Shown here: one piece after another, positions 4,630-60,243 of the stretch
Layout: each line of letters begins with the position of its first letter
How positions within the stretch are numbered: the stretch's first letter is position 1
NCBI GenBank assembly: GCA_964016885.1
Contig: OZ024754.1
Span: forward strand, 33,046,001-33,110,000
Direction: 5' to 3'
Source: Eledone cirrhosa
Lineage: Eukaryota
DNA: 64,000 bases
The notes under the pieces: generated by a model
Databases searched by the model: none
The model's input: the letters and a program-made list of their open reading frames with translations, nothing else
Told to the model about the DNA's origin: nothing
Program-made: the position numbers and the translations under genes

Positions 4630-5035
4630 ATATTAATTCAAAATATTAACAAAATAGATATTCTTGTGATCAAGTATATTTTATTATACATATTTCAGAG
4701 GTACTGAGTTAACTTTAACAGTACGTCCTCATCAGATTAAATAAGATGATGCATGACATATCCTGACATAGTAGATGGTTAAGAATCTTAACCATCTACT
4801 ATGTCAGAATATGTCATGCATCATCTTATTTAATCTGATGAGGACGTACCGTTAAAGTTAACTCAGTACCTCTGAAATATGTATAATAAAATATACTTGA
4901 TCACAAGAATATCTATGTTGTTAATATTTTGAATTAATATTAATAACTCCGGAAAACCAATTCTGTTGAGTGCTTCCAATCTATTGTAAAACTCATTCTT
5001 TGATTTATTCATTGAACCTTGTTTAACCTTTAAAT
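4630..5035. mobile_element. (TA)n-flanked fold-back element (family A-like): ~155-bp inverted arms centred at 4785 plus ~95-bp tail on the right arm; hammerhead in both arms
   Basis: 4630-4784 is the reverse complement of 4786-4940 with a few mismatches; (TA)n both sides; tail contains CTGTTGAGTGCT. Confidence 0.85.
4827..4893 (+). ncRNA. type I hammerhead ribozyme motif (mirror copy on - strand ~4677-4743)
   Basis: tatttaat CTGATGA ggacgtac..gtacctct GAAA tatgta TA ataaaata. Confidence 0.75.
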
Positions 5036-5361
5036 ATATATATATATATATATATATATATATATATATATATATATATATTTATATTTATATATATATA
5101 TATATAGAGATAGATAGAGAGATATCTTAGATAGATAGATAGATACACACACATACTAATATACATACACCAACTCACTGACACCCACTTACACCCACAC
5201 TCTCACTGATACAGATGCACACAGGCACTCACACACTCACCCACACACATACACAGTTACAGACACATATACACAGATAGGAAGACCCCCCCCCCTAATA
5301 CACACACACACACACACATATATATATATATACAATTATGTATATATACATATATATATGT

Positions 5362-5622
5362 AGAATTTGTATTTGATTTGTTGGGATTCCGACAAACATA
5401 AATGCTTATAACTGATTTAGAGCACTCAACAGTTTAGTGGAGTAAATATTCCAAGATATTAAATAAATTGAAATAATATTTATAAAACCATATTTATTTT
5501 ATTATATATATTTCAAAGGCAACCAAGGTTACCTTGGTACGCTTTCATCAGATAAAATACAAAGTGTGTTTTATAAATAAAGACATATCCATGATAATCA
5601 AACCTCGGTCGGAAATTCACTA
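5362..5622 (-). mobile_element. family A PLE-like 3' end with tail; hammerhead at 5495-5559 (-)
   Basis: reverse complement reads TATTTTAT CTGATGA aagcgtaccaagg taa ccttggttgccttt GAAA TATATA TA ATAAAATA (8-bp stem I); TA-flanked. Confidence 0.85.
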
Positions 5623-5698
5623 ATATATATATATATATACAATTATATCTATATAGAGAGAGAGGGAGGCACACGCACACACACCTCTCCCCCCCACA

Positions 5699-6181
5699 TA
5701 TACACAAACATAGAATGGCCGTCAGATGAAATTGATACTAATATGTGCTCGCCAGCTGCGACCGATCGGTCAGCGTTTCTAGAATCACGTGGTAAATACA
5801 ATACTAAATGGACGGGAGATTATCTGACATATCCACTGGTCAGACAATGTCTTAATATGTACATGTGTGTATACATATGTACATATGTATAAATATCTAT
5901 ATATATATATATAGATATAGATATATATATTTATTATTGTATTTACCACGTGATTCTAGAAACGCTGACCGAGCGGTCGCAGGTGGTGAGCACATATTAG
6001 TATCAATTTCATCTGACGGCCATTCTATGTTTGTGTATATGTCAATATTTATTTATAAAACTGCTCTATTTTATATTTTATCTGATGAAAGCACACCATA
6101 ATTTAACTTGGTGTCCTTGAAATATGTATAATGAAATAAATATGGTTTTATAAATATACTTTCCATTTGTTAATATATCGT
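5699..6181 (+). mobile_element. family A element with inverted upstream segment (5699-5803 vs 5933-6038); hammerhead at 6074-6138 (+)
   Basis: tattttat CTGATGA aagcacacca..tggtgtcctt GAAA tatgta TA atgaaata; ~105-bp inverted repeat around a TA tract. Confidence 0.8.
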
Positions 6182-7013
6182 ATATATATATATATATATA
6201 TTGGAAGAGGAAATATATATTTTATCTAATAATTCTAAGGACATGATTTATGATATATATATATATATATATATATATATGTATTGTATGTCTGCATATA
6301 TATATATGTATGTATTGTATGTATGTGTATGTGTATATATATATGTGTGTGTGTCTAAATATATATATATATATATATGTATATATACATATGTATATAT
6401 ATATAAATATATATATGTATATATACATATGTATATATATATAAATATATATATATACATATATATATGTATATACACATATATACATATGTATATATAT
6501 GTATGTGTATATACATATATATATGTATACACATGATGTCAGACAGAGAGAAAAGTAGATGCATAGACAGACGTGTACGATGCTATACCATTATTGTACA
6601 TACATGCGTGCTCAAACTTTCTCTATATAGACACAAAACCAAACAATATATGCAGTATAGTGTTTCAATAATTCCAATTGAACTTCGTGTACACTTCTGT
6701 ATCTTTTGTGTGTGCTTATATATTCTTTTTTATATGATCTATATAGTCTCATACATCTTTTGTATAAATTTCTATATCCACTCTATGTGCTTGTATATCT
6801 TTAGAATATTCTTGTATATCGTATGTATATGTGTATATATTCATCGTGTGTCGTCTGTATTTATTTCAGAAATTAATCTCTATCTTTTGTAATTGTTTCA
6901 CCAAATATAGAAACAAACGATAAAATTAATATTTTTCCTTTAGCAAGGAAATTTATGCATTTTTATTAGTATTTTCTGTATTATATATTATTTTTGTTAT
7001 TTCTTTACTATTA

Positions 7014-7460
7014 GGCGGTGAATTGGCAGTATCAGTAGAGGGTCGGACGTCATTCTTTGCTGCATAGAGTTACAGCTCTTAATGATCTGAGTTCAAATCC
7101 CGCCTAGGTTAACTTTGCCTTTCATCCTTTCAGGGTGGATAAAATTGAGTACCAGTCACGCACTGGGGTCGATTTAATCGACTTCGCCTCCCCCAAAGTT
7201 GCTGGCTTTGTGTCTATATAAGAAACCATTATTTCTTTATTATAGGCCGTTGGATTAGCAGTATCAGTAGAGGGTCGGACGCCATGCTTTGCAGCATAGA
7301 GTTACGGCCCTTTATGATCTGAGTTCAAATCCCGCCGAGGTTAATTTTGCCTTTCATCCTTACGGGGTCGGTGAAATAAAGTACCAGTCACGCACTGGGG
7401 TCGATTTAATTGACTTTCCCCTCCCCCAGAATTGCTGGCCTTGTGGCTATATAAGAAATT
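7014..7460 (+). mobile_element. two tandem tRNA-derived SINEs with Meta/MESC-type core
   Basis: A-box-like TGGCAGTATC, B-box GAGTTCAAATCC, core GCCTTTCATCCTTACGGGGTCGATAAAATAAAGTACCAG, ATT-rich tail; ~20 related copies in window. Confidence 0.9.
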
Positions 7461-7919
7461 TCTTTACTACATAACACCCAATTGGCAACCTGCTTGCGTC
7501 GGATTTAAAAATACCTTGTCTCACTGAGCTCTGAGTTCAAATCAAGCCGAGGTTAACTTTACTTTTCATGCTTATGGTACGCTTTGTGATGTTAGTTCCT
7601 TCCAGCTGTCTGCGCTGTAAGTTCATCATAGCCTTCCATCTTTTCGATGTCGATCAATAAAATATAAGTCCAGTACTGGAGAGTCGATACTTCCTCTGTT
7701 TCTCTGTCTCTGCAAGTAAGCAGCTGCGTTCCGATATGAACGGCGATGGGCTCCGCCATGTTTTACGACTCCATGACGAGTAACGAGTATTTTGCTTTGT
7801 TCCCCTTTCGTTACCATATTTCTATAATTTTCAAACTAATTTGGAGGGACTTAATGATATAACTAACCTTGTCATTATTGAGCTTGTGTTTGGAACATAA
7901 CTTAACTTAAATAGTGAGT

Positions 7920-7967
7920 CTTGTTACTGTGGAGTTTCGCCTGTTTATCACAGGCTCATCAGACCAA
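7920..7967 (-). ncRNA. type I hammerhead ribozyme motif
   Basis: reverse complement: ttggt CTGATGA gcctgt gataa acaggc GAAA ct ccac ag TA acaag; perfect 6-bp stem II. Confidence 0.7.
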
Positions 7968-58554: not shown

Positions 58555-59265
58555 CTGTTACTGTCGTTATTGCTGTTGTTGTTGTTGTTGCTGTTGTTGT
58601 GGTTGTTGCTGTGGCTACTGCTGTTGTTGCTGTTGTTGCTGTGGCTACTGCTGTTGTTGTTGTTGCTGTTGTTGTTATTGGTGGTGTTGTTATTGTGGTT
58701 GTTGTTACTGTCGTTATTGCTGCTGTTGTGGCTACTGCTGCTACTGCTGCTGTTGTTGTTGTTGCTGTTGTTGTTGTTGTTGCTGTTGTTATTAGTGTTG
58801 TTGTTGTTGTTGTTGTTATTGCTGCTGTTGTTATTAGTGTTGTTGTTACTGTCGTTATTGCTGTTGTTGTTGTTGCTGTGGCTTCTGCTGTTGTTGTTGT
58901 TGTTGCTGTTGTTGTTATTGGTGTTGTTGTTATTAGTGTTGTTGTTACTGTCATTATTGCTGCTGCTGTGGCTACTACTGCTGCTGTTGTTGTTGTTGTT
59001 GCTGTCGCTTCTGCTGTTGTTGTTGTTGTTGTTGTTGCTGTGGCTACTGCTGTTGCCGTTGTTGTTATTTGTGGTGTTGTTATTAGCGTTGTTGTTGTTG
59101 TTGTTGTTATTGCTGCTGTTGTTATTAGTGTTGTTGTTGTTGTTGTTGTTGTTATTGCTGCTGTTGTTATTAGTGTTGTTGTTGATATTGTTGTTATTGT
59201 TGCTGTTGTAATTAGTGTTGTTGTTATTGCTGTGGTTGTTATTAGTGTTGTTGTTGTTGTTATTG
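58555..59265. repeat. (GTT/GCT)n tract; similar tracts at 2670-3700, 53445-54230, 57983-58353, 61860-62640
   Basis: direct reading. Confidence 0.95.
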
Positions 59266-59269
59266 TCTG

Positions 59270-59402
59270 AATATGTCACTGTATAATTTTTGTATTTTAT
59301 CTGATGAGAGCGTACCAACATTTTGTACCCTTGCAATATATATAATAACATAAATGTGGTGTTATAAAGATAGCTTCCCTTTATTAATATTATTGATATA
59401 TA
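59270..59402 (+). mobile_element. family A short copy, hammerhead with GAAA>GCAA mutation
   Basis: tattttat CTGATGA gagcgtacc..gtaccctt GCAA tatata TA. Confidence 0.7.
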
Positions 59403-59413
59403 TTATGAAATAA

Positions 59414-59602
59414 AGGCGGGGGATTGGCAGTATCGGTAGAGGGTCGGACGCCATGCTTTCCAGCATAGTTACGTGCCTTTACGATCTGAGTTCAAATCCC
59501 GCCGAGGTTGACTTTGCCTTTCATCCTTACGGGGTCGATAAAATAAAGTACCAGTAATGCACTGGGTAATTGCTGGCCTTGTGCCTAATGTAGAAACAAT
59601 TA
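59414..59602 (+). mobile_element. Meta-core SINE with TSD ATTATGAAATAA
   Basis: duplication on both sides. Confidence 0.9.
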
Positions 59603-59912
59603 TGAAATAACAGGAGGCTGGACTGGTGTAATTCCTTGAAGGTTTATTATACTATGAACATTTCAATGACCGGGTTCAGTATGAATCCGGTGACATCATC
59701 AGGTATTCTAAATTTAAGAAAAGAATATAATAGACACAATCCATGGGGCTGAAAATGCAGAGAGACGAGAAGGCGGCCGAACAATTAACAGTTGCAAGTC
59801 CGGTTGGCCGCCTTCAAGTCATTACGTCGAGTGCTCTCCCGAATATTACACCAAGGTTGACTATACGGAATGACCAGTTCTATCCAGTGGTGAACCAACA
59901 AACCTAAATGTG
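59600..59912. mobile_element. family G copy: short arm with hammerhead 59649-59706 (-) joined to + strand tail
   Basis: homologous to 55970-56130 and reverse complement of 55826-55910. Confidence 0.8.
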
Positions 59913-59936
59913 TATATATATATATATATATATATG

Positions 59937-60243
59937 CAAAAGTTCTATTTAAATTGTTGGGATACAACAAGCAAATATTTTTATAACTGATATAAAGCAC
60001 TCAACAAGTATTTGGAGTAAACATACGATATTAACAAATGGAAACTATATTTATAAAACCATATTTATTTCATTATACATATTTCAAGGACACCAAGTTA
60101 AATTATGGTGTGCTTTCATCAGACAAAATATAATATAGATCAGTTTTATAAATAAATATTGACATACCCTTAAAACATGCAACCATTACTGTTGGAAGCT
60201 CCCGGATAGTACTATCCGGGAGCTTCCAGCAGTAATGGTTGCA
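59937..60243 (-). mobile_element. family A element with tail, hammerhead 60066-60130 (-) and 66-bp terminal palindrome (60178-60243, centre AGTACT)
   Basis: same stem II as 6074 copy; zero-spacer fold-back at the 5' end. Confidence 0.85.

Follow-up and report, generated by a model that had tools for sequence, protein, structure and literature searches.

The stretch analysed here (hereafter the window) comprises 64,000 nt of the Eledone cirrhosa assembly GCA_964016885.1 (contig OZ024754.1, positions 33,046,001 to 33,110,000, forward strand) and contains short, often head-to-head repeat fragments with (TA)n flanks, in whose ends a first-pass annotation had noticed the word YYGAGTRC. We found that this word forms the 3' side of a hairpin with a bulge, RCUC-[variable stem-loop]-U(U/C/A)-GAGY-RC, and that the repeats carrying it, as far as the proteins of their coding parents tell, appear to be Hydra-clade Penelope-like elements (PLEs). 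Coding parents bear two such hairpins ahead of the start codon: copies stop either just before the upstream one (hairpin 1, tail-less end) or just before the downstream one (hairpin 2, tailed end), and in head-to-head copies the second, inverted arm is called the partner arm. The relevant features of the window are as follows.

4946..4971 (+): hairpin 1 of family A (ACTC, 5-bp upper stem, TT bulge, GAGT; minimum-free-energy fold), with a tail to the TA tract at ~5034; the inverted partner arm stops 5 nt before it.
4835..4878 (+): minimal hammerhead core (CTGATGA...GAAA; pattern scan) upstream of the family A hairpin, with an inverted copy from 4735 (-).
5424..5443 (-): hairpin 1 of a G-like family with a single mismatch in the upper stem; a hammerhead core lies at 5551 (-).
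9703..9721 (+): family C hairpin 1, present again at 24768-24786 (-).
9881..9904 (-): hairpin 1, family B; tailed end at ~9827, corresponding to 3-6 nt before hairpin 2 of the parent L216; the partner arm stops 5-8 nt short of hairpin 1, at ~10034.
10981..11006 (+): hairpin 1 of the GCTC/TA-GAGC type, outside YYGAGTRC.
12465..12488 (-): family B hairpin 1, between a tailed end at 12411 and a tail-less end at 12608.
13185..13239 (+): family F hairpin 1 with an upper stem of 6 bp, a long loop and a single mismatch in the lower stem; further copies at 14696-14750 and 37202-37255.
15500..15507 (-): decayed family K motif, its 5' strand disturbed by TA expansion; the tailed end is at 15461 and the tail-less one at 15630.
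18006..18030 (+): family D hairpin 1, with the partner arm ending 4 nt ahead of it.
18337..18357 (+): family G hairpin 1; a hammerhead core lies at 18231, and the tailed end (~18430) falls 4 nt short of hairpin 2 in the parent L248.
24573..24596 (+): family B hairpin 1, between a tail-less end at 24443 and a tailed end at 24650.
25003..25022 (-): hairpin 1 of a G-like family; hammerhead cores at 25129 (-) and 25314 (+).
29239..29263 (-): hairpin 1 with a TA bulge, outside YYGAGTRC.
30169..30219 (-): family K hairpin 1 (GCTC/GAGC, a compensatory change relative to ACTC/GAGT); the tailed end, at 30128, falls 3 nt short of hairpin 2 in the parent L232.
30336..30356 (-): family G hairpin 1, with a tailed end at 30263 and a partner arm that extends to the hairpin base.
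31207..31275 (+): family E hairpin 1 with an upper stem of 5 bp and an insert of ~50 nt; a second copy lies at 41006-41078 (-).
38159..38185 (-): hairpin 1 of the GCTC/GAGC type.
41867..42385 (-): C-terminal GIY-YIG endonuclease fragment of Hydra-clade PLE family E; nothing found in Pfam.
42490..42511 (+): hairpin 1 of the GCTC/GAGC type, with the partner arm ending 2 nt ahead of it.
42638..42661 (-): hairpin 1, family B.
55902..55961 (-): hairpin 1 with a 5-bp upper stem and a 40-nt insert; a hammerhead core lies at 56074 (-), and the partner arm ends 2 nt ahead of the hairpin.
57359..57382 (-): family B hairpin 1, between a tailed end at 57305 and a tail-less end at 57503.
59827 (+): motif related to the 55902..55961 hairpin, without the 5' strand.
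59999..60018 (-): hairpin 1 of a G-like family, with a hammerhead core at 60122 (-).
60930..60953 (-): family B hairpin 1, between a tailed end at 60876 and a tail-less end at 61027.

The endonuclease fragment of family E, used as a query, yielded 40 anchored loci, of which those with intact features carry endonuclease, hammerhead, motif and TA tract in this order on one strand. Walking from such loci reached coding parents for families B (L216), K (L232) and E (L122 and L127), together with M1 and M2, two additional families; in parents B, E1, K, M1 and M2 there is just one open reading frame (ORF), of 709-794 aa, in which a reverse transcriptase (RT) is followed by a C-terminal GIY-YIG endonuclease. 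All 28 Hydra-type proteins possess RW[KR] and DK[TS] and none has [AS]DKG, while CxCX5-7C was found in 26/28, CxxC..E in 27/28 and CX2-5CxxC in 0/28 (strict CxCX5C in the coding parents). A CxH pattern was recovered in parents B, E1 and K and not in M1/M2, and no CCHH motif of the endonuclease was seen by eye in one protein alignment or in the ORFs of L071 and L073. An initial assignment to Neptune was rejected, as DKG and the CX2-5CxxC linker are absent from the hairpin families and present in the control families. In a quick tree (with long branches and published sequences absent), a branch with a support of 100 set our own proteins (6) and those of the metagenome (22) apart from 4 Neptune-type and 1 Poseidon-type proteins. 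The elements insert into (TA)n, which all 210 ends mapped below abut, and a minimal hammerhead core lies upstream of the motif, on the same strand, in many window and metagenome elements (pattern scan; the pattern was not found in the B, E1 and K parents). Here and below, statements on cited papers refer to excerpts of them; the minimal hammerhead type found here is the one described for the pseudo-long terminal repeats of PLEs (PMC4209133). Taken together, these protein features suggest that the motif-bearing families are related and belong to the Hydra clade. They had been regarded as otherwise unrelated, a view that did not survive the recovery of coding parents: all those found are Hydra-clade PLEs (32-71% protein identity). 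The motif is thus shared through descent within one PLE clade, and unrelated families have not converged on it.

Young PLE families of several kinds, namely Hydra B (L217) and Neptune-type and Poseidon-type elements (L270, L271; L276), were encountered as intact tandem arrays with near-identical ORFs, which suggests that several PLE clades have recently been active in this genome. On one metagenome contig (L150:3-2417) a Neptune-type ORF sits directly upstream of a Hydra element, and at L067:5526-8864 ORF fragments of a Ty3-like long terminal repeat retroelement (gag, RT, RNase H and integrase motifs by eye) lie beside a PLE fragment.

The individual words are present where they had been listed (4966, 9716, 13234, 18025, 18352, 24591, 31270, 15507 on the minus strand, and others) and point toward the (TA)n tract at a distance of 44-94 nt. 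YYGAGTRC has 29 matches in the window, part of which are incidental: for instance, the one at 7145 (TTGAGTAC) lies in a short interspersed element (SINE)-like repeat, presumably of tRNA type, and those at 15890, 23256 and 26156 (CTGAGTGC) lie in fragments that we take to derive from an RTE-like long interspersed element (LINE). Within 40-100 nt ahead of TA tracts the word occurs 16 times in the proposed orientation and 4 times in reverse (115 TA flanks), and in 78 independent stretches of 10 kb, chosen at round coordinates elsewhere in the genome, 56 versus 6 times (882 TA flanks), both being counts of copies and not of families. The positional and strand enrichment becomes modest once a single representative is taken per cluster of TA flanks (centroid clustering, as single linkage merged the flanks into one 546-member cluster, useless for a family test): among 496 representatives, 11 words point toward TA, 5 are reversed and 3 lie far (position p 0.029, strand p 0.11), and in the random loci p ranges from 0.006 to 0.046 for position and from 0.046 to 0.27 for strand. 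At the family level the enrichment of the linear word among all TA flanks is thus weak, and a de novo 6-mer scan did not recover it. As a consensus, YYGAGTRC does not match E (TTGAGTCA), F (TTGAGTGA) and K (TCGAGTCC/TCGAGCCC). The clade-wide word is T(T/C/A)GAG(C/T)RC, i.e. THGAGYRC, which is found in 29/35 family 5' regions (YYGAGTRC in 2/35) and occurs 51 times in 6,472 nt of leaders, against 0.3 expected from ORFs and 2 occurrences of YYGAGTRC.

The word pairs with an upstream RCTC across a covarying upper stem and a 2-nt bulge. When the upstream complementary 4-mer is given and an upper stem of at least 3 bp is required, a 2-nt bulge closes the stem at 18/23 window sites (0-3 for other bulge sizes) and at 27/45 random-locus sites near TA (2-6 for other sizes); over the 78 random loci, this register counts 81 versus 9-35 for the others. 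Covariation was assessed on every THGAGY of the 260 nt that precede the start codon in 35 families (7 of our own and 28 from the metagenome; another one was left out for want of an ATG), the partner being the nearest upstream RCTC irrespective of any stem, which gave 64 sites from 33/35 families. Watson-Crick pairs were found at the three upper positions in 56, 38 and 36 of the 64 sites (32.8, 17.2 and 16.3 in shuffled sets) and at the closing pair in 61 (50.7 shuffled), with 0/5000 shuffles reaching any of these values, although kinship among copies and families means that such counts cannot be read as probabilities. At these sites, pairing in three shifted registers and at two positions beneath the stem was no more frequent than in shuffles, and an extension of the lower stem below R-Y was rejected on this ground. 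Furthermore, a gapless alignment of 9 equal-length hairpins holds 12 compensatory cells (0/500). The flanks had been described as not aligning: those of A/G-type copies do align, and elsewhere they do not because the upper stem covaries.

The bulge reads TT at 42, TC at 13 and TA at 9 of the 64 sites. The non-Watson-Crick pairs of 99 distinct hairpins (30 G-U, 10 A-C, 19 other) favour, by the excess of G-U over A-C, a fold on the sense strand, and the hairpin strand is indeed the sense one relative to both ORF and hammerhead. This also speaks, though not decisively, against an antisense-template self-priming of inverted PLE ends (PMC3846280), which we do not favour. Neither an enrichment of UUCG/GNRA tetraloops in the hairpins nor, in the window, a match in Rfam at gathering score (a weak test for so short a motif) was seen. 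The unpaired bases after GAGY are conserved as well, mostly as ACTCT (A 49, C 57, T 54, C 38, T 56 of 64); joined to GAGY they form a near-palindromic GAG-NN-CTC whose conservation the hairpin does not account for. One might consequently read the word, as the wording of the first-pass annotation permits, as a linear double-stranded DNA site for an element protein or a host factor, but a linear site explains neither the compensatory changes, the fixed bulge and the loop inserts of up to ~55 nt, nor the fact that the distance from the motif to the tailed end differs by family; we regard this idea as barely plausible, and the covariation largely refutes it. A splice donor or branch point was rejected as well (no fit to GTRAGT, and a structure that covaries), as was a decoy half of hammerhead helix III, the consensus being without NUH. 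In a hammerhead at 57210-57247 (+), helix III (ACTC-C-GAGT) has the letters of the hairpin's lower stem, as it has in published Hydra consensus sequences, and a common origin with the hairpin is possible.

Each of the parents B, E1, E2, K, M1 and M2 has two hairpins before the ATG, 67-172 nt apart, the second being located ~15-70 nt ahead of the ATG in most families. For family G, a search with the tail end followed by any two G/C bases (no hairpin required) gave 123 matches with one recurrent continuation among the 100 listed; in 8 copies fetched this continuation was hairpin 2, more or less decayed, followed in most by a Hydra ORF start. In family F the continuation, a variant hairpin, is part of ~1-kb non-coding tandem arrays, and the family is a retrozyme-like, non-autonomous PLE derivative (arrays at L256-L263, e.g. 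L258 and L260; window copies at 13100-13292 and 14630-14803).

Among the TA-ended copies mapped on 7 coding parents, 188/210 stop 1-9 nt before hairpin 1, which gives the tail-less end, or before hairpin 2, which gives the tailed one (B 76/84, E1 20/22, E2 1/1, K 55/57, M1 17/23, M2 7/8, G 12/15; family F was excluded, since its query held a TA tract and produced an artefact). The window and random loci alone give 84/91. In a test that requires no parent, 64/82 inverted partner arms end within -2..+8 nt of hairpin 1 (72 of 154 long arms had no partner), and the median stop falls in this range in 13/15 non-alignable groups. The two end classes are moreover combined in a regular manner: head-to-head pairs of up to 1.2 kb and without an internal TA tract consist of one tailed and one tail-less arm in 45/48 cases (22/23 in the window and random loci). 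The variable distance of 45-90 nt from motif to end that had been noted does not have the motif as its reference point; it corresponds to a family-specific spacing to a second hairpin located just beyond the end of the element in its parent, whereas the motif seen in the copies adjoins the other, tail-less end. Finally, 12/14 start sites show a run of alternating T and A, 3 nt or longer and situated 4-6 nt ahead of the hairpin, as compared to 29% of leader positions.

The last observation, and the position of hairpin 2 so close to the ATG, would also suit hairpins that control translation or packaging of the mRNA from the 5' leader, the ends falling nearby simply where an AT-rich patch primes best. 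The ends nevertheless track both hairpins within a few bases over the whole range of spacings, though AT-rich patches make up more than a quarter of the leader, and the non-coding tandem family retains hairpin 1, which renders this alternative very improbable. The same end geometry is predicted if the hairpins direct where, a few bases upstream, the transcript is cleaved or its 3' end is formed, two RNA 3' ends then serving for ordinary target-primed reverse transcription (TPRT). RNA-seq read ends of Poseidon_Ac do coincide with its tail boundaries, but the same element starts internally on uncut RNA in vitro (PMC11167929); RNA processing alone leaves the one-of-each pairing unexplained, and the clade consensus GAGC-AC lacks a hammerhead NUH triplet, so that we consider such an origin quite unlikely.

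A third alternative places the hairpin in single-stranded DNA, where the GIY-YIG endonuclease would cut a few bases from its foot during resolution of the intermediate and so trim both ends. TPRT, however, begins at the element 3' end, which is not trimmed there, and the sense-strand fold is at odds with a first single-stranded DNA intermediate that is antisense cDNA, even if tolerance of G-U/G-T pairs cannot tell RNA from DNA. Resolution by the endonuclease is what Craig et al. (PMC8557442) held responsible for the tail, the D. virilis endonuclease required the tail for recognition (as cited in PMC11167929), and SsnA, of the GIY-YIG family, binds and cuts single-stranded DNA at hairpins by sequence and structure (PMC11893778); the in vitro start sites of Poseidon_Ac, on the other side, match the tail ends (PMC11167929). 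On balance we judge trimming of this kind unlikely.

The hairpin is not confined to this genome. From a marine-metagenome set (77 loci from the best 80 of 272; 56 families at 75% identity), 25 Hydra families have at least 140 nt before the ATG, and among these 21 carry the hairpin and 16 carry two; a reverse-strand control in these families is confounded by the near-palindromic GAGCACTC. Eight of the 13 metagenome 3' ends situated away from a contig end stop 0-4 nt before a hairpin. The motif-bearing hairpin is absent from the non-Hydra control families of this genome (0/4; 3 Neptune-type and 1 Poseidon-type), a small control in which three of the loci have tandem units, and no Neptune relative was found in viral contigs. 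Among the six new Hydra consensus sequences in the supplement of Craig et al. (PMC8557442), the hairpin is visible by eye in Hydra-2_Amil, Hydra-2_Ajap and (twice) Hydra-1_Ajap; Hydra-1_Crog carries variants, and Hydra-1_Amil and Hydra-1_Obim are without a clear hairpin. The variant hairpin of our family F (AG bulge, GTGT) resembles the 3' variant of Hydra-1_Crog. In the same supplement, the 3' UTR (untranslated region) of Naiad_Mmer has a similar hairpin ~140 nt past the stop codon, where a neighbouring Naiad has no clear match; this may be chance or an indication of a wider distribution.

The twin arrangement, the two classes of ends, their one-of-each pairing and the covarying hairpin are thus observed features of these elements. 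In TPRT, the 3' end of an element is the place where its cDNA begins. As the structure keeps a constant place immediately 3' of both ends, belongs to the sense strand and is excluded from the copy, we argue that each of the twin hairpins, situated in the 5' leader between hammerhead and ATG and preceded by ends at 1-9 bases, likely acts as an RNA handle that positions the RT-endonuclease to prime cDNA just upstream (a reading to which, from these sequence comparisons, we would assign a probability of about 0.6). The end mapping agrees with the suggestion of the first-pass annotation that the motif is a cis signal which binds the RT/endonuclease or defines the 3' end, with the correction that the signal is a structure and not a linear word. 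A hairpin that is in use is never copied, so that only hairpin 1 is visible in the copies, at a family-specific distance from the end, and start marking by hairpins would likely explain the one-sided tail of the insertions.

The pairing suggests that both hairpins are used in a coupled way on the two strands of one cut. The endonuclease would cut both strands of a (TA)n tract, whereupon two protein units, one per hairpin, could prime from the two target ends, probably aided by 3-5 nt of UA-rich microhomology; the cDNA started at hairpin 2 would include hairpin 1 and the spacer (the tail), the one started at hairpin 1 would not, and the two would be joined head to head. Tentatively, and with some doubt as to its parts, we propose a programmed twin-priming, in which a dimeric, telomerase-like RT-endonuclease on two identical, never-copied RNA handles behind the template start may prime both strands of one (TA)n cut with a template alignment of a few bases, generating a head-to-head, one-tailed insertion in one step; tandem arrays would then be the sole source of tailed full-length copies. 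A precedent exists in the Poseidon PLE protein, which nicks and extends both strands, starts internally at two sites that equal the tail ends, prefers uncleaved RNA and is predicted to be a dimer (PMC11167929).

Several observations weigh against the handle, besides the kinship mentioned above. The evidence for its role is entirely genomic. In sequence terms, 22/210 ends are located elsewhere; 3/48 pairs are not one-of-each (all from family G, whose short arms are poorly captured by the parent stretch); the second hairpin of family F is the AG-bulge, GTGT variant; searches for parents of families C and D found none; in the metagenome 4/25 families lack the hairpin and 9/25 lack two; and the TA-flanked end of L179 has no descriptor hairpin alongside. 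As to structure, the compact 18-nt hairpins (n=13) covary weakly (33/500) and have the second upper pair unpaired in 6/13; the hairpin is the minimum-energy fold in just 3/7 window examples (z -0.4 to -2.1), and its predicted stability is weak, i.e. only marginal. Mechanistically, the arms overlap in sequence, and a one-RNA model needs strand displacement or else two RNAs, and Poseidon_Ac initiates inside an AC-rich stem-loop, without this motif and without target homology (PMC11167929).

The window contains further repeats. An RT fragment (Pfam RVT_1) at 15711-16820 (-), which we take to be an RTE-like LINE, has fragments of its repeated 3' part at 23190-23435 and 26020-26335, and an ORF fragment with a zf-RVT domain at 48643-49428 (-) is the C-terminal part of an L1/Tx1-like LINE. 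The SINE-like repeat is abundant and often tandem (6997-7458, 12200-12390, 25810-26000, 59415-59600, and others), and minisatellites comprise a 27-nt unit x55 (26480-27989), a 130-nt unit x3.3 (39508-39950) and a short-unit array (47039-47530).

PLE RTs are the sister group of telomerase, for which reason an RNA handle outside the copied template bears on the evolution of RT-RNA anchoring. The hairpin constitutes a defined RNA element of ~20 nt with natural compensatory mutants, from which a cDNA start 3-8 nt upstream of each hairpin, one per target strand, is predicted; its simple descriptor also allows very abundant short fold-back repeats to be annotated as Hydra PLE stumps. The choice of start sites by PLEs and their inverted insertions with one-sided tails are stated to be open questions (PMC8557442, PMC3846280, PMC11167929). 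That no description of the motif was known holds for the hairpin too: searches of the full-text literature (subscription papers and Repbase notes being outside its coverage) returned none, the words 'hairpin' and 'stem-loop' have 0 occurrences in the supplement of PMC8557442, where no such hairpin is described in the excerpts, 'hairpin' and 'hammerhead' have 0 occurrences in the excerpts of PMC13282606, and the RCUC/GAGY hairpin was not seen in the letters of supplement S1B of PMC11167929. The elements thus belong to a known family; what seems not to have been described, in the literature searched, is the twin hairpin together with its register to both ends.

Small, often bulged RNA stems that recruit a cognate RT and set the start of synthesis are familiar from the 3' stem-loops of 'stringent' LINEs and SINEs, the R2 3' UTR and the epsilon element of hepatitis B virus. 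The LINE and R2 stems, however, are themselves part of what is copied, and in epsilon a protein primer starts synthesis from the bulge, whereas the hairpin described here is located behind the start, uncopied and paired. In the twin priming of L1, two primers from two target strands likewise yield an inverted insertion, but the second primer lands at variable internal sites and the arms do not overlap, unlike here, where both starts are fixed and the arms overlap. The SsnA/NTS system (PMC11893778) resembles ours in that a GIY-YIG nuclease recognises a short hairpin by sequence and structure, with an oriented flank; it differs in being bacterial, without RT and with a demonstrated DNA substrate, and no SsnA-like activity is shown for PLE endonucleases in the excerpts of that paper. 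With the Hydra PLEs with a C-terminal endonuclease (EN+; PMC8557442) our elements share the single ORF, RWK, DKT, CxCX5C, CxxC, CxH and the hammerhead, as well as the (TA)n targets, the inverted 5'-truncated copy and the optional tail, which measures ~65-170 nt here as compared to 30-40 there. Poseidon_Ac (Frangieh et al. 2024, PMC11167929) is alike in that two start sites, downstream of the hammerhead, delimit its tail and in that both strands of an AT-rich target are cut and extended; its starts lie within one AC-rich stem-loop in the ORF, for which no conserved motif is named in the excerpts, whereas the elements described here have two copies of one sequence-and-structure motif, in the 5' leader and 3' of each end.

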